64,000 nt of DNA from Patescibacteria group bacterium (lineage in GTDB: Bacteria > Patescibacteriota > Doudnabacteria > UBA920). The notes under the pieces were generated by a model that worked only from the letters and a program-made list of their open reading frames with translations, was not told the origin of the DNA and searched no databases. This document shows positions 3,238 to 48,654 of this stretch, one piece after another. Numbering within the stretch: position 1 is the first letter of the stretch; each line of letters begins with the position of its first letter. Made by a program: the position numbers and the translations under genes. The stretch lies in the NCBI GenBank assembly GCA_013387205.1, contig WARV01000008.1:128136-192135 (forward strand). The letters are read 5' to 3'.

Positions 3238-3362
3238 GTCATTGCGAGGAGCGCATCCGATCGAGACAATCTGATCACCGGGCGTCATCCTGAGTGCAGC
3301 CGAAGGATCTCAATAAAAATAAGAGATTCTTCGCCCTCAGATGCATTCGGGCTCAGAATGAC
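3238..3362. repeat. GTCATTGCGAG-family modular palindromic repeat, copy 1 (modules A + B + inverted B), inside greA 5' UTR
   Basis: gtcattgcgagg...caatc ; gtcatcctgagtgcagccgaaggatctc ; loop ; gagattcttcg...ctcagaatgac. Confidence 0.7.
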
Positions 3363-8057: not shown

Positions 8058-9005
8058 ATGTTACCTCAAAATAAAAAGTCCCGCTTCCAAAACCAAACTT
8101 TCAAAAAACAGCTGGAAAACGCCAGGGGGTATAAACGAAACGCCAGGAAAATTCCGGAAAAGAAATTTGACGCTATACTGGACAAGTTTGGCTTAAGCTC
8201 TATTTGGACGAAATCTGCGCTTGTTATAATAATTTTAGCTTTGGGATATATAATTTATATCCCGAATTTTTTAAAAATCAAGCAAATTGAAATAACTGGT
8301 ATTAGAAGCGACAACAAGGGAACAATTGAAAATACCACCCGTGATTTTTTAAAAAGCAAGCCGTATTGGCCACAAACGAACTTGTTGCTGTTGTCTAAAC
8401 AAGGCCTTAGCAAATATATCCTGAAAAAGAATACTGAGGTGCTTAAAGTAGAAAGTATCAACAAAAAGTTTCCGAATTCACTCGAAATCCAGATATCTTC
8501 AAGAATGCCGAGATTTGTCCTGCAATCTCCAGATGGAAGTTTTATTATATTCAACGACGGAAAGCTTTACAAAAAACTTGATGCGTCCGCAACGCCGGAA
8601 TCAAATTTAATTTTAATCAAGATAGCCGGAGGTATTGAACCTGGCACAGGCACTTTTACCATGCCGCAAGAAACCATCTCCTCAATTAATTTAATCCAGA
8701 AAGATTTGCCGGATATCACAAAGTTGGCTATTGAATATTATAAAGTAGAATCGATTAAGGATCCGGATTTGATAGTGCAACTGAAAAGCGGTTATAAGAT
8801 TAAATTCGACACCAAGCTGGATACCGCCGATGTATTAAAAAAAACAAGGCTGCTTTTATCGGAAATCCCTGACACTGACCAGGCAAAACTCGAATATTTG
8901 GACATGAGAATTAACGACAGGGGATACGTTTGTATTAAAAATGCCCCATGCGCGAAAGAAACCGTAATAAACAATGCTTCTACAACAATTGAAAGTATTA
9001 AATAG
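8058..9005 (+). CDS. FtsQ/DivIB-like cell-division protein (single TM + POTRA-like domain)
   Basis: basic N-terminus, one TM helix (ALVIIILALGYIIYI), POTRA-like segment IKQIEITGIRSDNK...LKVESINKKFPNSLEIQISSRMP. Confidence 0.5.
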   Translation: MLPQNKKSRFQNQTFKKQLENARGYKRNARKIPEKKFDAILDKFGLSSIWTKSALVIIILALGYIIYIPNFLKIKQIEITGIRSDNKGTIENTTRDFLKSKPYWPQTNLLLLSKQGLSKYILKKNTEVLKVESINKKFPNSLEIQISSRMPRFVLQSPDGSFIIFNDGKLYKKLDASATPESNLILIKIAGGIEPGTGTFTMPQETISSINLIQKDLPDITKLAIEYYKVESIKDPDLIVQLKSGYKIKFDTKLDTADVLKKTRLLLSEIPDTDQAKLEYLDMRINDRGYVCIKNAPCAKETVINNASTTIESIK

Positions 9006-10076: not shown

Positions 10077-11651
10077 CTAATTCACCTTATACTCCGTAAC
10101 CACAATCCAGGTGCCGACCCAGGGGCGGACATCTTCGTAACCTTTCTCATCAACCTGCACCCAATTTTTCGGCGTCTCTGGCTTATTGGATCCAAATCCA
10201 TTGGTCCACAAAAGCCAAACGGTGTCGCCGGGCTTGGTGGAGGCTTTAAAATCCGGCACCAAATCTTCATTAGTTAAAATCGCCGAACCGGCTATATGGG
10301 AAATATTCTTCACATCTGCCACACCGCCCGTGAAAAGCTGAGGCCTGACAGGAGTCTTGTTATAATATTTATAATTGAAAAATTCAAAAGAAGTCCCGAC
10401 GTATAATTTTTGCCCCGGCTCGACATTGGCCTGCAGATATTTTGCCGCACCAGCCATGCCAGGCCGAGTTTGTATTTTAAGCTGGCTCCAATAATAAGAA
10501 AAGGTGAACAGATTAAGTACGATATAAATTATAAACAAGCCGGCAGCAAATAACTTATTCTTTAATTGCGACATCCATACTGCTAAGGCAATTGAATAGT
10601 ATATGCTGGCAAACAGAAAATATCTATCCATGTAGACCGATGACGAGCTGCCTTTTAATTTGGCCAATAAGGCAAATAAAACCGCTCCGCCAAATGGGGC
10701 AATTATTGCCAAAACCACAAGCCATTTGTGGAAGAAATCGGTTTTTCTGACGAATTTATATATAAAGTAAATTGAAAACAGGAAAATTACTGCAAGCCAA
10801 AATTGCGTGGATGTTTTGGCTGTATCGCGGCCAAGGCCTAAAAGCATATCCCACAAAGTCGCGGGAATGCTCCAGCGGTTGATTGGCGGAATCCAGTACC
10901 CGGCTCCCACTTGGCGGTATTGGAACAAAAAAGTCTTAAGCCAAGGAAGGAAAGACAATCCAATAACCAGGTAAGATGCGATTATGTAAATATATTTTCT
11001 AAAATCCCACTTGTGATGGGAAAACAAGTAAACTAATCCATAAAAACCTAACGCTGCCGCGGTAAAGAACAAATAATAATGCGTGTAAATTATTACTATC
11101 ATGGACAAAGTGAATCCAAAATAGTTTAAAAGCATATTGCGCTTTAAATTGATATCCTGAGGCAGGTTGGGTATTTTTAAAGCCCGGGTCTCATGCAGCT
11201 GCTTTTGCTGGTTCAAAGCTTTAACTAAGAAATACCCGGCAAGCAAGGCAAAAAACGCGCCCATGGTATACATTCTTGCTTCGGTTACATATTTTAGCTG
11301 GAACGGATTAAGGGCGATAAAAACCGCGGCCCAAATCGCAGCTCTCTCGTTTTTAAATGCTTCTTTGACAAATGCATAGCCGGCCCAAATAGAAGCTACG
11401 CCAAAAAATATAGACATGCCGCGCAGGGACAGCAGGGAATCGCCGAAAATATAATGCCAGAACCTCAAAAATACGTAATACATCGGCGGGTGGACATCCA
11501 GCCCAATGCGGTACACCATCTCGCTCCAGCTGTACCTGATAAGCAATGCCGAAAACGCCTCGTCATGCCAGAGGGAAATTAAAGTATTGTTGTAAAACCT
11601 CAAAACCGTCCCTAAAATTAGGATCAAAATTAAAGGAAGGTGTTTTTTCAT
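10077..11651 (-). CDS. membrane glycosyltransferase, PMT/ArnT (GT39/GT83-like) family
   Basis: multi-TM protein with N-terminal LRFYNNTLISLWHDEAFSALL... motif typical of dolichyl-phosphate-mannose-protein mannosyltransferase-like proteins; 524 aa. Confidence 0.75.
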   Translation of the reverse strand: MKKHLPLILILILGTVLRFYNNTLISLWHDEAFSALLIRYSWSEMVYRIGLDVHPPMYYVFLRFWHYIFGDSLLSLRGMSIFFGVASIWAGYAFVKEAFKNERAAIWAAVFIALNPFQLKYVTEARMYTMGAFFALLAGYFLVKALNQQKQLHETRALKIPNLPQDINLKRNMLLNYFGFTLSMIVIIYTHYYLFFTAAALGFYGLVYLFSHHKWDFRKYIYIIASYLVIGLSFLPWLKTFLFQYRQVGAGYWIPPINRWSIPATLWDMLLGLGRDTAKTSTQFWLAVIFLFSIYFIYKFVRKTDFFHKWLVVLAIIAPFGGAVLFALLAKLKGSSSSVYMDRYFLFASIYYSIALAVWMSQLKNKLFAAGLFIIYIVLNLFTFSYYWSQLKIQTRPGMAGAAKYLQANVEPGQKLYVGTSFEFFNYKYYNKTPVRPQLFTGGVADVKNISHIAGSAILTNEDLVPDFKASTKPGDTVWLLWTNGFGSNKPETPKNWVQVDEKGYEDVRPWVGTWIVVTEYKVN

Positions 11652-13470: not shown

Positions 13471-15144
13471 TTATTCAATTTTATACACCGCCATTGTGGC
13501 TTGGTTGAATTTATTGCGGTATTCGAGAAATAAACGAGCTTGCGGATGGTATTGCTTGAATTTCTTGATGTCAAAAATGCTGGATTGGGTAAAGATAACT
13601 TTATCGCCAAGCTTTAAATTGGAGAGCTTCCAGGAATCTTCCGGGTCAACTTGGTTGTATGGCACATTGCAAGGATCACTGAAATCACCATGCCAGTTGC
13701 TGGTTAAATAATCGGTTGTTTGCACCGAGAATTTATCGAGCACGAGATAAGTATGTTCCTTATCGCAATTTTGGACAAGATATTTACTGGTTCTGGTTAA
13801 GTCTGACCTGAAGTAATAAAAATTTTCCGGAGAATTTGCCGCATAAACAAAATACAAAAAGTAAGTCTGCAAAATTAATGCCAAGACAAAAGCCGCAGCT
13901 GCAAATTTAAACGCGTTCAGCACTAGCCTGGATCTTCTTGAATCATCCATGTGGTATTTGGTATAGACTCCGTGGTGCGCTTTTAGCACAATGCGGCAAA
14001 ATTCATAAATCGCCCATGCGGTTATTATAAACACGACAGGGATTGTGCCGATGGACCTAAGCCCATGGGGAATTCCTTCTGCCGTAGTGATAACAGGAAG
14101 CAACATACCCCAAAACCATCCGGTTAATAGGAAATACGGCCAAAAATGCTTCCTTTTGTTCGGCGCAAAAAAATACCAAATGCCGAAAATAGTGACAATT
14201 ACCAAGCCGATACCGAAAAACGGGCTGATGATTTGCGACAGGAAGGGGAATCCGGAAATGTTATGCCGCCAATTCAAATCGCCTTTAGTAAAGTAGGCAA
14301 GCATGCTTTCCTTTAAAACCTGCCCGACTGTACCGATTAAATTGCCATGGTTAAGCTCCGGGTTAAATACGCTAACCTGTCCGCTACGGCCGACAAATGA
14401 ACCAGGGTGGGTGTAAAAATATTTCGCAATGGGATAAATAAAAACTACAAAACCGATAATAAAACTGATAACAGGTAATTTATAACTAGAAGCAGTTTTC
14501 CAGAATTGTTTTTGCTTGATTTGGGCAAGCAGCGGCCAGGCTATTATCATAAACAAAATAGGAGCCATTATGCGGTAAGCGATGTATGTGTAAAAACCCA
14601 AGGCAAATGACGCGCCGGTAAGCAATGCCAAAATCATGCGATTTCTTAAAGTTTTTGACTGGAAACTGGCAATCAGCAAATACAAAGTCAGGGTGGAAAA
14701 GAGGGGAATAAGATTGGCGCGAAAAGCAGTACGTGACAAAACCACATACCAGGAATTTACAGCCATCAAAAATGAAGCCAAAAGAGCGATGTTAACGGAA
14801 CGGTTTTTGTCTTCGCCATTAAACATGGAAAACAACCTTCTGGTTAAAAAGAAAGTAATTAAAACCGACAAAACTCCTACTAAAGCCGAAACAATATGAT
14901 GTTGCCACGGACCTTTGCCAAAAAGTTCAACGCTGCCCCAAAGCATGTAAAAGAACAAGGCCTCCCTTCCGTTCCCGCGTTCGTAAAACGGCTGTAAGTG
15001 CCCTTGCTGCATTAAGTTAATATCCAATCCGTTGGCGGCTTCATCAGGGAATAGTCCGCCAGGCATAATGTTAATTTGGTAAAATCTAAAAAACACGGCC
15101 AAAAATATTATGCCGATTAAGAACAATTTTTGTTTCTGCGTCAT
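13471..15144 (-). CDS. membrane glycosyltransferase, PMT/ArnT (GT39/GT83-like) family, paralog
   Basis: FYQINIMPGGLFPDEAANGLDINLMQQG... N-terminal motif and ~12 TM segments; 557 aa. Confidence 0.75.
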   Translation of the reverse strand: MTQKQKLFLIGIIFLAVFFRFYQINIMPGGLFPDEAANGLDINLMQQGHLQPFYERGNGREALFFYMLWGSVELFGKGPWQHHIVSALVGVLSVLITFFLTRRLFSMFNGEDKNRSVNIALLASFLMAVNSWYVVLSRTAFRANLIPLFSTLTLYLLIASFQSKTLRNRMILALLTGASFALGFYTYIAYRIMAPILFMIIAWPLLAQIKQKQFWKTASSYKLPVISFIIGFVVFIYPIAKYFYTHPGSFVGRSGQVSVFNPELNHGNLIGTVGQVLKESMLAYFTKGDLNWRHNISGFPFLSQIISPFFGIGLVIVTIFGIWYFFAPNKRKHFWPYFLLTGWFWGMLLPVITTAEGIPHGLRSIGTIPVVFIITAWAIYEFCRIVLKAHHGVYTKYHMDDSRRSRLVLNAFKFAAAAFVLALILQTYFLYFVYAANSPENFYYFRSDLTRTSKYLVQNCDKEHTYLVLDKFSVQTTDYLTSNWHGDFSDPCNVPYNQVDPEDSWKLSNLKLGDKVIFTQSSIFDIKKFKQYHPQARLFLEYRNKFNQATMAVYKIE

Positions 15145-17476: not shown

Positions 17477-18562
17477 ATGTCCTATTTTCTCTTCTTCACT
17501 CTTTCGGCTATTCTAGCCATAATTTTAACTCCGCTTATAAAGCGCCTGGCAATTAAAGCCAGTATTTTGGACATTCCAAAGTCTGAAAGGAAAATCCACA
17601 AACAACCCATACCGCTCTTAGGCGGCTTGGCCATATACCTTGCGTTTTTAATTTCCACGTTGACATATCTTCAATTCGGAAATGTTGATTTCAATGTTGT
17701 GCCGCAAAAATTTTTCGCAGGACTGATTATTGGCGGACTAATTTTAACCATTGGCGGAATTATAGACGACAAATACGATCTTCCGCCAAAAATTTTATGG
17801 CTTTTCCCGGCTTTGGCTTCGCTAGGAGTTGTTTTTTCAGGAATCGGCATTGGCATAAAATTCATCTCTAATCCTTTTGGCAATCCGGTCAACCTTGATT
17901 TTGCCGTATTGGGAATTCCGTTTTCCGCAATTTTCATTTGGCTTTGGATGATGGGCATGATTTTCACCACTAAGTTTTTAGACGGGCTTGACGGGCTTTG
18001 CTCCGGAATATCTTTAATCGGCGGACTGACTTTATTCTTTTTATCCATTACGCCGAAAATCAACCAACCCATAACCGCCACTTTGGCAATTATTTTTGTC
18101 GGCACCCTGGCCGGGTATCTCATCTTCGCTTTTTATCCTGCATCCATTTTTTTGGGAGAAGGCGGCAGCACCTTTTTGGGCTTCATTTTGGGAACTCTTT
18201 CTGTAATTACTGGCGGGAAAATAGCCACCGCGCTGCTGGTAATGGGTATCCCGATTCTGGACGTTGCCTGGTCAATCACCAGAAGATTATGGTATGGGAT
18301 GAGCCCGTTTAAAGCCGACAAAAGCCATTTGCATCACCGTCTTTTAGATATAGGCTTTACCCAGCCGCAAGCTGTTTTAATCCTTTATGCTATTTCAGCA
18401 GTATTCGGCTTCACCGCGGTCTTCTTGCAAAGTTTTGGCAAACTGGTCGCGCTAATTATTTTATTCGTCTTGATGATATCTTTGGCCTTAAGTTTAGTAA
18501 TAATTTACAAGCGCAAACATCCGCACGTTCCAGAAAATGTTTTAGCAAACAGCAAGGAATGA
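17477..18562 (+). CDS. glycosyltransferase family 4, polyprenyl-phosphate N-acetylhexosamine-1-phosphate transferase (WecA/MraY family)
   Basis: 10-11 TM helices, motifs IDDKYDL, GLDGL, DRRLWYGMSPFKADKSHLHHRLL typical of MraY/WecA. Confidence 0.8.
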   Translation: MSYFLFFTLSAILAIILTPLIKRLAIKASILDIPKSERKIHKQPIPLLGGLAIYLAFLISTLTYLQFGNVDFNVVPQKFFAGLIIGGLILTIGGIIDDKYDLPPKILWLFPALASLGVVFSGIGIGIKFISNPFGNPVNLDFAVLGIPFSAIFIWLWMMGMIFTTKFLDGLDGLCSGISLIGGLTLFFLSITPKINQPITATLAIIFVGTLAGYLIFAFYPASIFLGEGGSTFLGFILGTLSVITGGKIATALLVMGIPILDVAWSITRRLWYGMSPFKADKSHLHHRLLDIGFTQPQAVLILYAISAVFGFTAVFLQSFGKLVALIILFVLMISLALSLVIIYKRKHPHVPENVLANSKE

Positions 18563-21996: not shown

Positions 21997-23046
21997 TTAC
22001 GCCAAAATGCTAATATTTTTAAGGATACCATCTAACTGTTCAAGACTATTTACCTGGCTTAATTCTTTGCGAAGTTCAGAGGCATTCGGAAAACCCTTAA
22101 AATACCAAAGCAGGTGTTTTCTAAGTTCAAGCATACCTCTGTCGCCCTTATATCGGTACACAAGGTGCGCCTGGTCCATTATGGTTTGGATTCGTGTCTG
22201 CAAATTTATTTCTGGCTTAAACTTCCCTTCCAAAGCGGATTTGATTTCTGCAAAAATGAACGGGTTGCCGAGAGAGCTTTGTGCGACCATCACACCATCA
22301 GCACCAGTGTGCTGTAAAGCCTGTTTTGCTTTTTCACCGGAATCTATTCCGCCGTTAATCAGCACGGTTACGTCCGTATCTTTGAAAAATTCTTTTACCT
22401 GTTTGCCGATATCCCAATTAGGCTGGCCGTGATGGACTTGCTCGTATGTCCTCATGTGCACTGTGACGTTTTCAAAAGGCGCGCCTTTAATGGCCTGTAA
22501 AAAATCCAAAGCCGTGACATGCTTGTATGAAGCGCGCAGTTTAATAGATGTCGGCAGATTAGCTGCTTCTTTTACTAAAGTAACAATTTTCTTTGCAGCC
22601 TCAGGGTTTAAAAACAAGCAGCTGCCCGCGCCGTTATTTATAACGCTTCTGGCTGGACAGCCGAAGTTAATGTCAAACCCGTCGGGATTAAACCTGTGTT
22701 TCAAGATTTTTGCGGCAATGGAAAAATGTTCCGGTGTCGGGCCGAACAATTGGATAATAAACGGCCGCTCTTCTTCTATAAATTCAGCGAGCCTGCAAGA
22801 CTTATCATCAGCCCATATGGCGTCATCCTGAGCACAGTGAAGCATCTCTTTATCTGATAGCGATAACGGATCTTTTCCGATTAAACTTTTTACCTTATAA
22901 TATAGCGCGTCAGTGGAAATAAATTCGCTGAATGTGATATCCGAGCCCCATTTTCTCGCAACTGAGCGCGCGGCAATATCCGTAACTCCGCTCATGGGAG
23001 CCAAGGCCACAACAGGCTTTTTGATTGTTTTCCAGGAAAAAGGCAT
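21997..23046 (-). CDS. dus: tRNA-dihydrouridine synthase (DusB-like) carrying an in-frame repeat-derived insertion
   Basis: ALAPMSGVTD..., FMN-binding TIM-barrel motifs (QLFGPTPEHF, NFGCPARSV, INGGI); ~24 extra aa (EMLHCAQDD...) relative to E. coli DusB spacing. Confidence 0.85.
   Translation of the reverse strand: MPFSWKTIKKPVVALAPMSGVTDIAARSVARKWGSDITFSEFISTDALYYKVKSLIGKDPLSLSDKEMLHCAQDDAIWADDKSCRLAEFIEEERPFIIQLFGPTPEHFSIAAKILKHRFNPDGFDINFGCPARSVINNGAGSCLFLNPEAAKKIVTLVKEAANLPTSIKLRASYKHVTALDFLQAIKGAPFENVTVHMRTYEQVHHGQPNWDIGKQVKEFFKDTDVTVLINGGIDSGEKAKQALQHTGADGVMVAQSSLGNPFIFAEIKSALEGKFKPEINLQTRIQTIMDQAHLVYRYKGDRGMLELRKHLLWYFKGFPNASELRKELSQVNSLEQLDGILKNISILA
22822..22848. repeat. B-module of GTCATTGCGAG family (GTCATCCTGAGCACAGTGAAGCATCTC) embedded in-frame in dus
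   Basis: 27-nt match to gtcatYctgagtgcaNccgaagRatctc; encodes EMLHCAQDD on the minus strand. Confidence 0.55.
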
Positions 23047-27490: not shown

Positions 27491-27605
27491 GTCATTGCGA
27501 GAAGCCCGCAGGGCGACGTGGCAATCTAATCCTAAATCGAGATCCTTCGGATGCACTCAGGATGACGCCTGTGGCGCCAGATCAGATGCATTCGCCCGCA
27601 ATGAC
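27491..27605. repeat. GTCATTGCGAG-family repeat, copy 2 (A + inverted B + inverted A-end), immediately upstream of adk start
   Basis: gtcattgcgagaagc...ggcaatc ; gagatccttcggatgcactcaggatgac ; ...cgcccgcaatgac. Confidence 0.7.
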
Positions 27606-33449: not shown

Positions 33450-33552
33450 GTCATTGCGAGCGACTGAAAGGAGCGCGGCAATCTGTACATCAAGAGATTG
33501 CTTCCACCTTCGCTAAAGCTACGGCGGACAAGTCGGATGCACTCGTGATGAC
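33450..33552. repeat. GTCATTGCGAG-family repeat, copy 3
   Basis: gtcattgcgagcgactgaaaggagcgcggcaatc ... gagattgcttc...tcggatgcactcgtgatgac. Confidence 0.65.
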
Positions 33553-42716: not shown

Positions 42717-42774
42717 ATTTACCCGATTTTGTTGATAATTTGTTTGTGTTATAATGCTCGAACAGGAGGCCTTA

Positions 42775-43035
42775 ATGGCAGAGGTAAGGTTTCTTACCGA
42801 CGATCGCGATTACCCGACAAGAAATGAGTTAGTCATTCAAGCCGGCGGGAACGGTGATTGGTACATATCTGTCGTAGACGAAGGAACAAAGGCTGTGACC
42901 GGAGTGAAAATTTGCACCTCTGGAGGAGCATCAATGTCCGTTCCAGGGCTTACTGTAGCCATAGCCAGAGCATTTCAGGCTATTAAAGATGCTGCGGAAG
43001 CCGGGATCGAAGGAGCCACGCATGTTCCTGACTGA
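42775..43035 (+). CDS. hypothetical small protein, GC-richer (~52%)
   Basis: SD caggagg before ATG 42775; 86 aa; no family recognised. Confidence 0.4.
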   Translation: MAEVRFLTDDRDYPTRNELVIQAGGNGDWYISVVDEGTKAVTGVKICTSGGASMSVPGLTVAIARAFQAIKDAAEAGIEGATHVPD

Positions 43036-43072
43036 AGAAGCAACAAAAATAGCGCCGGGAAGTATTCCGGCG

Positions 43073-43996
43073 CTATATCTTTATTTCCGCATATCTCCAC
43101 TTGCCCGCGAAATCTTTGTGGAAATTTATTACTGCATTTGGCAGATTTTTTTTAATTAGATGATTTAATTCCTGCTTTTGTCTTGGATCGAATTCCAAAT
43201 AAACTAATTTTGGCTTGTTTTTTCTCTGCGCGATTTGCTCCAAAAGTTTTCTGATTAACACCAGCCCATTTTCTTTTGCAAAAATGGAATTTTTCGGCTC
43301 AAATTTTAAATTTGCTTTAAGTTTTTTATAATCACTAACTGGAACGTAGGGGAGATTGGCGATTATAATATCAAAATCTCCTTTAACATTTTTCAGTAAA
43401 TCGCTTTTTATGAATTGAATACCACTCACGCCAATTCTCCCATACGCTGGAGTATGGGAGTTTTTGGCTAAAATATTTTTAGCGTTCTCTTTTGCAACCT
43501 TCAAAGCTTTTTCTGATATATCTGATGCAACAATCCGCAATTCGTAATCCGCAATCCGAAATTCTTTCGCCAACGAAACCGCAATGCATCCGCTTCCTGT
43601 CCCAATGTCCAAAATTTTTACAATGTCATTGCGAGGAGCCAGGGCTTTATCTGGCGACGAAGCAATCTTTTCTTGGCTTGGTTTAGATTGCTTCGCTCGG
43701 ATGCACTCGCTCGCAATGACAAGGTCCACCACCATCTCCGTCTCCGGCCTGGGGATTAAAACATCCTTATTCACCTTAAACCTTAAGCCCCTAAAATCCT
43801 TGTATCCCAAAATATACGCAATCGGTTCGCCTTTAAGGCGGCGTTTAATGAATTTTGTTAAATTGTTATATTGTTTTTTTGTTAAATTGTAATCTGGATG
43901 CAAAAAAACAAACTCCTTGGGCTTTTTCAAAACATGCGCCAGCAGGAGTTCAATTTCTATTTTATGGTATTTTTTTAAAGCCACGCTGATTGTCAT
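43073..43996 (-). CDS. prmC: release-factor glutamine methyltransferase (PrmC/HemK) with in-frame repeat-element insertion
   Basis: PRPETEMVV, DIGTGSGCIAVSLA, NLPY(V) motif (ANLPYVPVSD); ~30 extra residues between PETE and DIGTG. Confidence 0.85.
   Translation of the reverse strand: MTISVALKKYHKIEIELLLAHVLKKPKEFVFLHPDYNLTKKQYNNLTKFIKRRLKGEPIAYILGYKDFRGLRFKVNKDVLIPRPETEMVVDLVIASECIRAKQSKPSQEKIASSPDKALAPRNDIVKILDIGTGSGCIAVSLAKEFRIADYELRIVASDISEKALKVAKENAKNILAKNSHTPAYGRIGVSGIQFIKSDLLKNVKGDFDIIIANLPYVPVSDYKKLKANLKFEPKNSIFAKENGLVLIRKLLEQIAQRKNKPKLVYLEFDPRQKQELNHLIKKNLPNAVINFHKDFAGKWRYAEIKI
43625..43720. repeat. GTCATTGCGAG-family repeat, copy 4, with perfect terminal inverted repeats GTCATTGCGAG/CTCGCAATGAC, inserted in-frame in prmC
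   Basis: gtcattgcgaggagccagggctttatctggcgacgaagcaatc...tcggatgcactcgctcgcaatgac; 96 bp = 32 codons (residues ~92-123 of PrmC). Confidence 0.65.
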
Positions 43997-44383: not shown

Positions 44384-45454
44384 TCATTGTTTGATCGCTT
44401 CTTTTTTGGCTTCAAGGTCGGCTTTTTGGAGGGCGGTGATGATGGGGGAGAGTTCGCCTTCCATGATTATGTTTATCTGGTTGAAATTCTGGTTTATGCG
44501 ATGGTCGGTAACGCGGTCCTGCGGGAAGTTGTAAGTGCGGATTTTTTCAGACCTGTCGCCCGTGCCGATTTGCGATTTGGTCAAATCGCGGATTTTTTTG
44601 TTCTCAATTTCTTCAAAATGGGCAGCCACGCGCGCACGGATGACTTCCATGGCTTTTTCCTTGTTCTGGGTAAAGCTGCGCTCGTCCTGGCACTGCGCGG
44701 TAATACCGGTAGGTATATGGACAATACGCACAGCGCTATATGTAGTATTTACGCTCTGCCCGCCATGCCCGGAAGACGTGGTGGCTTCTATTTTCAAGTC
44801 GTTCGGGTTTATTGAAAAATCTTTTTCTTCCAAAATCGGCAGCACAGCCACTGTGATTGTGGAAGTATGCACGCGTCCGCTTTTTTCAGTTTCTGGCACG
44901 CGCTGGACGCGATGCACGCCGGATTCATATTTGAATTTGCCGTAAGGCCCGCTGCCTGCCCCAGCTTTCCCCTTAACTTCACAAATTATTTCCTTAAACC
45001 CGCCGGCTTCCGAGCGGGAATTGGATACAACGTAAACTTTCCACTTGTTTTCTTCGGCAAACTTGGTATAAGCACGGTACATTTCCGCGGCAAACAAAGT
45101 TGATTCGTCCCCGCCGGCCCCGGCGCGGATTTCTAAAATGGCATCTTTGTCGTCATTAGGATCCTTAGGCAGCAAAGCATCCTCGATTTCTGATTTTAGA
45201 TTTATAATCTCAGACTCAAGGCGCTTAATCTCATCCAATGCCATGGATTTTATTTCCGGATCAGCGTCGTCTAAAAGCTTCTCGTTTTCCTGTAATTCCT
45301 TGATTTTAGATTCCAGATTCTTAATCCTATCCACGGTCGGCGCCAGTTCCGACTGCCTTTTGCCGAGCTTGGCCATATCAAAACCGTTGCCATTGCTCAT
45401 CTGCTCGGTAAGCTGGTTGTATTCGTCTAAGATTTTTTGAAATCCTTGTTCCAT
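44384..45454 (-). CDS. prfA: peptide chain release factor 1
   Basis: GGQ motif (SSGHGGQSVNTT), RF1-type PxT tripeptide present as PET (HRVQRVPETE); 356 aa. Confidence 0.9.
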   Translation of the reverse strand: MEQGFQKILDEYNQLTEQMSNGNGFDMAKLGKRQSELAPTVDRIKNLESKIKELQENEKLLDDADPEIKSMALDEIKRLESEIINLKSEIEDALLPKDPNDDKDAILEIRAGAGGDESTLFAAEMYRAYTKFAEENKWKVYVVSNSRSEAGGFKEIICEVKGKAGAGSGPYGKFKYESGVHRVQRVPETEKSGRVHTSTITVAVLPILEEKDFSINPNDLKIEATTSSGHGGQSVNTTYSAVRIVHIPTGITAQCQDERSFTQNKEKAMEVIRARVAAHFEEIENKKIRDLTKSQIGTGDRSEKIRTYNFPQDRVTDHRINQNFNQINIIMEGELSPIITALQKADLEAKKEAIKQ

Positions 45455-48567: not shown

Positions 48568-48654
48568 GTCATTGCGAGGAAACAAGGGCTTTGGCTTGTT
48601 TCCGAAGCAATCTATATATCACTGGCGTCATTCTGAGTGCATCCGAAGAATCTC
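48568..48654. repeat. GTCATTGCGAG-family repeat, copy 5 (A + B modules)
   Basis: gtcattgcgaggaaacaagggctttggcttgtttccgaagcaatc ... gtcattctgagtgcatccgaagaatctc. Confidence 0.7.

Follow-up and report, generated by a model that had tools for sequence, protein, structure and literature searches.

How did a palindrome of 96 bp come to lie in frame within prmC, is it read as part of the enzyme, and what has kept its ends intact? The sequence-only reading of the window (the whole 64-kb stretch of DNA that was analyzed) had proposed that this segment belongs to a repeat family, that it adds residues to the methyltransferase and that it mirrors the palindromic elements of Rickettsia. With a probability that we put at roughly 0.8, we conclude that the element is a non-autonomous dimer of (C/T)GTC-tagged repeats that is translated in the PrmC linker, is tolerated there, and has its ends kept as DNA.

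Results

The gene that hosts the element is a bona fide prmC, as judged by its score, domain and motifs. Its open reading frame (43073-43996, minus strand) is intact, encodes a release-factor N5-glutamine methyltransferase of 307 aa that scores 243.8 bits against TIGR03534 RF_mod_PrmC (cut-off 199.1), and stands in the conserved synteny prfA-orf-prmC-deacetylase. PF17827, the PrmC_N domain, is found in PrmC homologs, the GxGxG and N-L-P-Y motifs are invariant across the clade (motif IV, N-L-P-Y, in 39 members) and DIGTGSG is present. The AF2 model of the product has a pLDDT of 81.8 and its top PDB match is 2b3t_A (TM 0.78/0.86), on which the confidently modeled catalytic core superposes.

The element occupies positions 43625-43720 on the minus strand, as read in prmC, and its 96 nt run from 43625 GTCATTGCGAG to CTCGCAATGAC 43720. 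The perfect terminal inverted repeats described in the sequence-only reading are there: a repeat search found 12-nt arms at 43624-43635 and 43710-43721 that are 100% complementary (11-12 nt, depending on how the ends are drawn), and the internal modules that this reading had listed lie at 43662-43666 (caatc) and 43697-43708 (tcggatgcactc). The predicted RNA fold of the element is very stable (-41.4 kcal/mol; shuffles, -20.0 +/- 3.2; z = -6.7), folding as DNA gives z = -6.5 against shuffles, and its GC content is 52% as opposed to 36% in the remainder of prmC. We take the 96 bp to be repeat DNA rather than native prmC sequence, made up of two inverted stem-loop units, each of which comprises a GTC tag, a 5-bp stem (ATTGC/GCAAT), a purine internal loop (GAG/GAA), a variable inner hairpin and a tail C. 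Unit 1, on the 5' side of the mRNA (43686-43720, minus strand), reads GTC-ATTGC-GAG-CGAGTGCATCCGAG-CGA-AGCAAT-C, with the tag TGTC and complementary 5-mers, and its loop carries a GAGTGCATCCGA module that recurs in the units at 27541-27566 and 48627-48652. The plus strand, opposite, holds unit 2 (43625-43667), which reads GTC-ATTGC-GAG-inner hairpin-CGA-AGCAAT-C; it is laid out like the unit at 48568-48612, except that the inner stems of the two differ, and the GGGCTTT loop is similar. In unit 2, fold predictions place the variable inner hairpin (CCAG-GGCTTTAT-CTGG) at 43639-43654, and the same hairpin occurs in the orthologous prmC copies of loci L081 and L084. Between the two units, an inner perfect pair of 11 nt (43658-43668 and 43685-43695, CGAAGCAATCT/AGATTGCTTCG) forms, according to the folds, a central stem with a 16-nt A/T-rich loop (43658-43695). 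A scan for terminators and promoters did not flag the element, which has no terminator look on either strand, and Rfam gave no match to it at the gathering threshold and only sub-threshold miRNA-like hairpins at the E-value threshold.

A second palindrome, unrelated to the first, also lies in frame in prmC (CTCCCATAC-GCTGGA-GTATGGGAG, 43437-43460, encoding ..NSHTPAYG..), in a segment of low pLDDT in the AF2 model (residues 180-190). Covarying perfect hairpins are found at this site in L081, L084, L085 and L087, and there is no equivalent in L082 and L086.

What does the 96-bp element mean for the protein? It starts 5 codons past PRPETE and ends 5 codons ahead of DIGTGSG, and these codon positions place it, as had been proposed, between the PETE helix and the DIGTGSG motif. 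Its length is a multiple of three, it is free of stops in the frame used by prmC (four of its six frames are open) and it is read there as 32 aa, VIASECIRAKQSKPSQEKIASSPDKALAPRND, residues 93-124 (V93-D124). From the reading frame we infer that the ribosome translates the element as part of PrmC, in which case the expected junction peptides would include MVVDLVIASECIR and NDIVK. Some mitochondria bypass stable GC-rich hairpins in coding sequence, and that precedent, rather than any direct support, is what could be brought forward for a segment that is absent from the protein, whether through splicing or translational bypass, because prmC is a pseudogene or because the segment is an assembly artefact. 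We consider all of these extremely improbable: the frame is kept without stops in every orthologous copy, across independent samples and assemblers, the host ORF is complete and retains the invariant motifs, no signal of an intron or a ribozyme is present, and a linker without the element would be too short.

The last point bears on how the element relates to the native gene. The linker from PETE to D-x-G-T-G, which has 18 aa in E. coli (2b3t), 19 in T. maritima (1sg9) and 20 in 4dzr, reaches 42 aa in the present gene, close to the earlier estimate of about 45 versus about 18, and the HMMER alignment to HemK breaks exactly at the element. The accompanying claim of some 32 extra residues stood only in part, for 32 aa are indeed encoded but on balance the linker is longer by about 20 residues rather than by a clean +32: removal of the element leaves a linker of 10 aa, as opposed to at least 16 in every element-free ortholog. 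That only 10 aa would be left on excision leads to the conclusion that a stretch of the native helix has given way to the element, and an insertion into a complete gene therefore misfits the present state. In the AF2 model residues 84-103 are helical, 108-122 are coil (pLDDT below 50) and 126-131 form a strand; the first ~11 element codons (V93-Q103) extend the native helix, and the remaining ~21 probably form a hydrophilic, disordered loop. The dimer fills the linker that leads from the post-PRPETE helix to beta-1, the DIGTGSG strand of the methyltransferase domain, and general class-I methyltransferase geometry would put its loop at the surface, on the Rossmann face away from the SAM and release-factor sites. 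Its effect on the enzyme is likely to be neutral.

Is the element one of a family? With at most one mismatch allowed, the end sequence GTCATTGCGAG has 7 matches in the window where 0.75 would be expected, and none of 100 shuffles reached 7. Three intergenic copies are composed of several units: one at 48568-48652 (plus strand, upstream of tRNA-Thr) has an ATTGC unit with inner hairpin followed by an ATTCT unit, one at 27491-27605 is a composite of GTCATTGCGAG...CCCGCAATGAC around an ATCCT unit, and one at 3238-3362 is a composite of an ATTGC-type end and ATCCT/ATTCT units. A further copy (GTCATTGCGAG ... CTCGTGATGAC) lies in an ORF-poor region at 33450-33552. In addition, a terminal fragment of a sister subfamily (GTCATCCTGAG.., 22819-22848, minus strand) lies in frame, encoding ..EMLHCAQDD.., in the Dus-like ORF 21997-23046, where about 44 residues compare with about 15 in T. 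maritima Dus 1vhn. The other copies in the window share only modules of 11-31 nt with the prmC element and have no full-length similarity to it, and so across the 64 kb covered there is no sign of recent within-genome transposition. The proposal of a dispersed palindromic family was borne out, with the correction that this family is a mosaic of stem-loop units rather than one uniform 96-bp element.

These units are widespread. Complementary stems were present in 252 of 272 matches to the unit pattern, in six covarying variants (ATTGC, ATCCT, ATTCT, ATTCC, ATCCC and ATGCC) whose stems all open and close with AT; 12-34 nt separate the two halves of a stem, the variable inner hairpin has 2-7 bp, and the tails read ..GCAATCCAG in high-GC copies and ..GCAATCT(T/A) in window copies. 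An exact 26-mer, GTCATTGCGAGCGNAGCGAAGCAATC, is found in more than 120 IMG/VR contigs with GC contents of 0.34-0.72, in megaplasmids of Novosphingobium, Methylosinus and Methylobacterium, always intergenic and unannotated, and in Chloroflexi loci. Viral loci held 82 distinct inverted dimers of 64-169 nt, in which GTC was preceded by C in 53 cases and by T in 25, and GAC was followed by G in 61 and by A in 17; the ends of the prmC copy are TGTC...GACA. The lengths of these dimers modulo 3 (32:31:19) indicate that the family at large is without a 3n bias. A test for dimers inside long ORFs was set aside for the viral contigs because high-GC DNA yields spurious long ORFs, making the test unreliable. 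A protein search with a 56-aa concatenate of the element peptide found no match, and a literature search by element sequence strings gave primer coincidences only. An exhaustive HMMER search with the element peptide returned one eukaryote-like tandem-repeat protein, which we judged spurious.

Could the element be a classical MITE, that is, a deletion derivative of an IS with a DDE transposase, mobilized in trans via its terminal inverted repeats? It is small and multicopy and its inverted repeats of 11-12 nt are perfect, but each "TIR" belongs to a self-folding unit with covarying stems, which is a REP-like anatomy, and we regard this origin as very improbable. No target-site duplication was found at the prmC copy, nor in the 82 distinct dimers, where observed and permuted values were equal for k = 2-6. 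No transposase is encoded in the 64-kb window, none is flanked by units in any fetched locus, and about 2.7 Mb of fetched loci held neither a transposase nor a full-length element with the same ends. A single Y1-transposase gene was seen (L084, 14342-14701); the repeat on its flanks is a different one, and tblastn found no match to its product in the window.

Orthologous DNA was available for 12 loci, retrieved by exact protein match; in genome contigs, the prmC-related loci among the matches listed encoded PrmC of at most 41% identity and included no Doudnabacteria. A search of metagenome contigs with the junction pattern gave 18 matches, four of them in prmC. The same linker codon is occupied by the same repeat family in 10 prmC genes, and all ten copies are in frame and free of stops, including 4/4 from the DNA pattern, which is blind to ORFs. 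In other syntenic orthologs the linker holds sister variants, arrays of heptamers, or unrelated palindromes rich in GC, of which there are at least four. The PETE-to-GxGxG linker is therefore a hot spot for several unrelated repeats. In 58 of 112 PrmC homologs the linker has at most 26 aa, and the nearest sampled relative of the window, L086 (grouped with it at 99.5% bootstrap on RF1+FtsW+DnaE), has no element and a linker of 22 aa. An element-free allele of the kind that the sequence-only reading had looked to in related genomes thus exists, and because its linker is so short the objection that element-free orthologs carry an equally long segment fails.

Does the shared codon reflect a single ancient insertion in a Doudnabacteria-like ancestor, followed by vertical descent and then by divergence, losses and replacements? 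Codon, orientation and frame are common to the ten orthologs, and one inner hairpin is found in the prmC copies of the window, of L081 and of L084 but is absent from the paralogous copies in the window. While such a history deserves serious consideration, we think it unlikely. Carriers of the element were never monophyletic (0/200 bootstraps), the sister L086 is without the element, and L228, the sister of L084, has an unrelated palindrome in its linker. Moreover, PrmC identities do not follow insert type (L081-L226 70%, L082-L228 71%), GTCAT-type inserts start at five different offsets (5, 8, 9, 15 and 17), and the ends of the element are undecayed although synonymous sites are saturated.

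The state of the ends is itself informative. The orthologs are only 50-65% identical as proteins, yet the element ends are conserved as DNA: the first Val codon of the element is GTC in 9 of 10 copies, versus a GTC usage of 11% elsewhere in these genes, and when the window is compared with L081, identical codons are used at 19 of the 21 positions in the element that encode the same amino acid, versus 56% outside it. These codon comparisons indicate that the ends are maintained at the nucleotide level, not as peptide, and selection on the peptide would not account for such conservation. Might the hairpin then be a selected nucleic-acid element with the peptide as a by-product, be it an mRNA structure that tunes translation or decay of prfA-orf-prmC, a pause for the ribosome between the PrmC domains or a DNA site for a host protein? 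Conservation of the ends as nucleotides across diverged orthologs would fit, as would the stability of the fold and the strong palindromes in many orthologous linkers despite their differing families (-44 to -85 kcal/mol vs. -8 in element-free L086). We nevertheless find this improbable, given that the 58 homologs with short linkers include the sister genome, that the two element-free linkers read as DNA (L086 and L230, the latter a heptamer array) are without a comparable hairpin, and that the insert offsets vary as described. Elsewhere the same units are mostly intergenic, and neither a match to an Rfam family nor a terminator-like structure on either strand speaks for a selected hairpin.

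Discussion

The prmC element is a real and well-supported further case of a known phenomenon. Under our preferred reading, in which a repeat dimer is translated and tolerated, it may have inserted into the site or displaced something that had occupied it before. A copy would persist because its length is a multiple of three and it is open in the frame used, and because the linker tolerates almost any sequence. Since some of the native linker is gone, the element would now supply structure that PrmC needs. Its ends would be kept by the process through which the family propagates, whether re-copying, gene conversion or recognition by a putative enzyme. Is the linker even an actively targeted landing pad, where lineages that are not sisters gained the element on separate occasions, or by element-for-element copying, at one and the same codon? 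We think this doubtful. If it were true, a putative enzyme would have to integrate the element site-specifically or convert the site from a template, and it would supply the mobility function that is missing from CGTC-type REPs, which are without a known transposase and are found in three or more bacterial phyla as well as in viral contigs.

Rickettsia is the best-known host of palindromic repeats that lie in frame in housekeeping genes, and the present case extends them to the candidate phyla radiation; in the literature searched we found no paper that links Patescibacteria/CPR with REP, REPIN or RAYT. The locus amounts to a natural experiment in which one short enzyme linker holds, in syntenic orthologs, at least six kinds of repeat DNA or none. 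It illustrates how selfish or slippage-prone DNA may turn into protein sequence, with the protein then depending on the repeat, and it makes testable the question of how a unit is conserved across phyla without a known transposase. It is also a warning for annotation, as variation in protein length in Patescibacteria can derive from repeats.

How does the element compare with known systems? RPE-1 and its relatives, of which Ogata and co-workers reportedly gave an account in 2000, are said to be palindromes of ~100 bp that lie in frame in housekeeping genes, and the palindromic elements of Rickettsia are reportedly translated, hydrophilic and at permissive surface positions, with the same gene hit in related species. 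The prmC element is likewise a palindrome of ~100 bp, in frame and stop-free in a housekeeping ORF. It differs in that its host, Patescibacteria-like as judged by the best matches of its proteins, belongs to another phylum, with no demonstrated sequence match to RPE-1, in that it replaced part of the native linker, and in that this linker holds several unrelated repeat families across orthologs.

Like intragenic bacterial MITEs (the enterobacterial RU, PMC2759123, and those of Coxiella, PMC5896051), the element is a small, TIR-bounded repeat that adds peptide within an ORF, but here there is no target-site duplication or parent IS and the ends are self-folding units. With REPINs and their RAYTs (Bertels and Rainey, 2011; PMC3116915) it shares two inverted REP units with a spacer, a long hairpin and the absence of target duplication, but the tag of REPINs is GTAG as opposed to (C/T)GTC, and the window has no RAYT.

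The closest described class is that of the CGTC-tagged REPs (Di Nocera, De Gregorio and Rocco, 2013; PMC3733652), a likeness drawn from their description rather than from the four published consensus sequences of their families. This class includes RPE-4 and RPE-6 of Rickettsia and dRS3 of Neisseria, occurs in several phyla, mainly in Alphaproteobacteria, has no dedicated transposase, and is found inside ORFs too, where its members encode 20-30 aa (PMC3733652). The analogy with Rickettsia drawn in the sequence-only reading is apt: RPE-4 and RPE-6 formally belong to a class known inside genes (PMC3733652). Patescibacteria are not among the hosts named in that paper (PMC3733652), and the strings ATTGCGAG, CGTCATTGC and GCAATGAC were not found in its text or supplements. 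The published stem is uninterrupted, of 8-9 bp with a 4-5-nt loop (PMC3733652), whereas in the unit found here a Watson-Crick stem of 5 bp is followed by a GAG/GAA internal loop and then by an inner hairpin that varies, and the tail in the AT-rich genome of the window reads CT(T/A) versus a 3-nt unpaired CCA consensus. What the two have in common is the unpaired terminal tag (CGTC, often TGTC, with CCTC also allowed in the class, and here C or T at -1 in 78 of 82 dimers), a stem that opens with A-T and T-A pairs, as in all six stem variants here, a short tail past the stem, and units that occur mostly as inverted dimers, as in the prmC copy.

The element and its host gene

The palindromic element at 43625-43720 lies in minus-strand prmC and reads GTCATTGCGAG...CTCGCAATGAC, its ends being 12-nt arms of perfect complementarity and its interior holding a second perfect pair of 11 nt (43658-68 / 43685-95). 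The 96 nt fold into a Y, two inner hairpins on a closing stem, at -41.4 kcal/mol as RNA (z = -6.7; z = -6.5 for DNA), and their GC content is 52% versus 36% in the remainder of prmC. Stop codons are absent from four of the six reading frames, and the prmC frame yields the peptide VIASECIRAKQSKPSQEKIASSPDKALAPRND, residues 93-124; the sequence-only reading was correct in describing a stop-free, in-frame palindrome. Its host, the release-factor glutamine methyltransferase gene (307 aa; 43073..43996, minus strand), reached 243.8 bits against TIGR03534 in a profile search (cut-off 199.1) and has prfA (44384..45454) and a small ORF upstream of it; the top PrmC homologues carry the names Candidatus Doudnabacteria or Patescibacteria. 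Between prmC and the convergent ORF 42754..43035, a GC-rich hairpin flanked on either side by T-runs (43049-43076) is a candidate for an ordinary bidirectional terminator.

The linker from the PETE helix to the D-x-G-T-G motif comprises 42 aa in this PrmC, whereas the solved structures 2b3t (E. coli), 1sg9 (T. maritima) and 4dzr have 18, 19 and 20 respectively; this bears out the extra length claimed relative to the E. coli enzyme. When HMMER aligns the protein to HemK/PrmC chains of solved structure, the breakpoint coincides exactly with the element. Linker length in 112 close homologues ranges from 16 to 71 aa (median 26; 26 aa or fewer in 58). Removal of the 32 element codons produces the junction MVVDL|IVKIL and a linker of 10 aa, shorter than in every element-free orthologue. 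Thus, while the ~32 residues that had been regarded as added are indeed element-derived, the element has replaced native linker sequence rather than merely lengthening it.

An AlphaFold2 model built from a 39-sequence alignment (pLDDT 81.8) superposes on E. coli PrmC from its RF1 complex (2b3t_A) with TM 0.78/0.86. It predicts a single helix (84-103) spanning the first 11 element codons, followed by coil, with pLDDT <50 at 108-122, and a strand at 126-131; because helix and coil run through the element in this way, the model suggests that it now supplies the C-terminal half of the native helix plus ~20 disordered residues. From general class-I methyltransferase geometry, we infer that the loop preceding beta-1 would point away from the SAM site.

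Catalytic motif IV (residues 214-217) is N-L-P-Y, invariant in 39/39 clade members of our PrmC alignment (A1), the E. coli and T. maritima motif being the canonical N-P-P-Y. Directly after it (A1 columns ~320-345) is a third length-variable site with two alternatives, VP..SDYKKLK or GWSEWKNNSSA, and longer inserts in some orthologues (the homologues P0002, P0023 and P0055 are listed). A second in-frame perfect palindrome at 43437-43460, CTCCCATAC-GCTGGA-GTATGGGAG, lies between ENAK and IQFIKSD, encodes ..NSHTPAYG.. and scores on the plus strand as a terminator-like site. At the equivalent position, related loci L081, L084, L085 and L087 have covarying perfect hairpins, that of L084 (AAAAACTCCAATACT-AGCG-AGTATTGGAGTTTTT) resembling a bidirectional terminator; no hairpin is present there in L082 and L086, and the palindrome of L083, CCCTCTCCCTC, is unrelated.

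A modular repeat family

The prmC element consists of two inverted ATTGC units, 43686-43720 (minus) and 43625-43667 (plus). Its 11-mer, allowing one mismatch at most, occurs seven times in the window versus 0.75 expected, a count that no shuffle reached. Four further copies (3238-3362, 27491-27605, 33450-33552 and 48568-48652) resemble the prmC copy only in modules of 11-31 nt; the proposed membership of a dispersed family therefore stands for the units, but the family is modular and REP-type, not a uniform element. A unit opens with GTC, followed by a 5-nt half-stem starting AT and by GAG; after a variable segment come (C/G)(G/A)A, the complementary half-stem, which ends in AT, and a final C. 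In all sequence fetched, 252 of 272 pattern matches have complementary half-stems, and six covarying variants are seen (ATTGC, ATCCT, ATTCT, ATTCC, ATCCC and ATGCC). The variable segment often contains a small hairpin whose stem differs from copy to copy.

In the composite copies 3238-3362 and 27491-27605, units of the ATTGC and ATCCT/ATTCT subfamilies are nested or abut one another, which suggests that units insert beside or into each other. Within minus-strand ORF 21997..23046, a sister-subfamily terminal fragment (GTCATCCTGAG.., 22819-22848) reads in frame as ..EMLHCAQDD..; the product is tRNA-dihydrouridine-synthase-like, with a stretch of ~44 residues that corresponds to ~15 in T. maritima Dus (1vhn), and the fragment is possibly a second repeat-derived coding segment of the window.

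The repeat family also occurs outside this genome. An exact 26-mer, GTCATTGCGAGCGNAGCGAAGCAATC, is present in more than 120 IMG/VR contigs of GC 0.34-0.72, mostly as inverted dimers of 64-169 nt, as well as in Chloroflexi loci and in Novosphingobium, Methylosinus and Methylobacterium megaplasmids, where it coincides with no annotated feature. Across these contigs and replicons the unit's inner hairpin changes by compensatory substitutions, its outer stem and GAG/GAA loop being constant. To our knowledge, no known protein or function accounts for such conservation. Among 82 distinct dimers, 78 have C or T directly before GTC and 78 have G or A directly after GAC, and no target-site duplication was found around them; the element matched no Rfam family.

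The prmC linker as a hot spot

All fetched orthologues share the syntenic block rpsB-tsf...rpmE-prfA-(orf)-prmC-deacetylase-L25...ftsW...dnaE, and in ten prmC genes a family unit or dimer starts exactly 15 nt past the PETE codons, in identical orientation and frame: the element in the window, L081, L082, L083, L084, L085, L211 and L213, a single unit in L218, and a sister ATTCT/ATCCT variant in L087. In other PrmC homologues, GTCAT-type inserts occur at offsets of 8, 9, 15 and 17; that of P0090/L229 is a clean insertion, since a complete native-type helix precedes it. Unrelated GC-rich palindromic composites occupy the same linker in L226 (-84 kcal/mol), L227 (-44) and L228 (-85), the element-free L086 linker folding at -8 kcal/mol. 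Element-free linkers are built of short tandem DNA repeats, such as a heptamer array in L230 (10275-10306, AATTAGG AATTATG ...) and a 14-nt direct repeat in L086 (~10277-10315). We conclude that the linker site is a hot spot for several repeat families.

Period-7 arrays also occur elsewhere in L230, at 8447-8478, 8555-8583 (prfA), 10478-10500 (prmC) and 17942-18025 (dnaE), and many linkers at the protein level (KSEKLKVKS, IMNHELRIMNH, VTSDGLRVTGNT) back-translate to heptamer arrays, which look like a general trait of coding sequences in these genomes. Small GIY-YIG ORFs (~90-100 aa) appear at varying places around the syntenic block in several related genomes (L226 989-1255; L227 20360-20650; L229 5565-5843; L230 20058-20354).

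A close relative without the insertion, sought as a check on the original claim, was found in L086. In a neighbour-joining tree of eight genomes (RF1+FtsW+DnaE, 1865 columns, 200 bootstraps) it pairs with the window genome at 99.5%, L082 joins this pair at 93.5%, and L084 pairs with L228, bearer of an unrelated palindrome, at 85.5%; the element-bearing genomes were monophyletic in 0/200 bootstraps. PrmC identities do not track insert type, yet a specific inner hairpin is common to the window, L081 and L084 prmC copies and absent from the window's own paralogous copies. Taken together, and for a distance tree of eight genomes, this points either to repeated arrival or copying at the same codon or to an old element that was often lost or replaced.

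Maintenance and probable translation

What is being maintained at this site, peptide or nucleic acid? Nearly all copies have the ends GTC ATT GCG ... CGC AAT GAC, although in the rest of these prmC genes Val is GTC in 11%, Ala GCG in 28% and Arg CGC in 21%. When the window is compared with L081, 19 of the 21 codons for the same amino acid are identical within the element versus 56% outside, and the codons directly flanking it differ. Such unusual codons and such codon identity argue that the ends are kept as DNA or RNA and not as peptide. Maintenance of this kind is in keeping with ongoing copying or conversion by the process that propagates the family, and the rival explanation, that the hairpin itself is functional, draws its main support from it too.

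The orthologous prmC copies, including four matches from an ORF-blind DNA pattern, are all 3n long and stop-free, whereas dimers at large have no 3n bias (32:31:19). Given this frame, the open reading and a linker otherwise too short, we conclude that the element should be translated.

Comparison with known repeat classes

The Rickettsia-like in-frame insertion proposed by the sequence-only reading is supported, with three corrections: replacement, a modular REP-type family, and a multi-family hot spot. It is of interest as a case from a new phylum, for the hot spot it occupies, and because conservation of the unit across phyla is unexplained.

Two classes were rejected: MITEs, as there is neither a target-site duplication nor, in the fetched loci, a parent IS, and REPIN/RAYT systems, as there is neither a GTAG tag nor a RAYT in the window. 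In the related genome of L084, a small Y1_Tnp (IS200/RAYT-like) gene (14342-14701) is flanked by another GC-rich palindromic repeat ending ..CCCCTACA, GTAG-type on the opposite strand, into which the protein C-terminus (..VGAGLARPLK) appears to extend; the arrangement resembles a REPtron-like unit of a different family.

The CGTC-tagged REPs defined by Di Nocera et al. (2013; PMC3733652) have a CGTC or TGTC tag, stems starting AT and a short tail, occur predominantly as inverted dimers and lack a dedicated transposase. Chiefly alphaproteobacterial, yet present in several phyla, they include Rickettsia RPE-4 and RPE-6 and Neisseria dRS3, and intragenic copies encoding 20-30 aa are documented. 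Our family agrees with them in tag, AT start and dimers, and no transposase was found for it in our limited sample; it differs in its unit, a 5-bp stem with a purine internal loop and inner hairpin in place of an 8-9-bp stem and 4-5-nt loop, and its unit strings were not found in the text or supplements of that paper. On these matches and this mismatch, judged by description and not by consensus sequences, it works like the CGTC-type REPs and is probably a variant of them, rather than an established member of one of the four published families.
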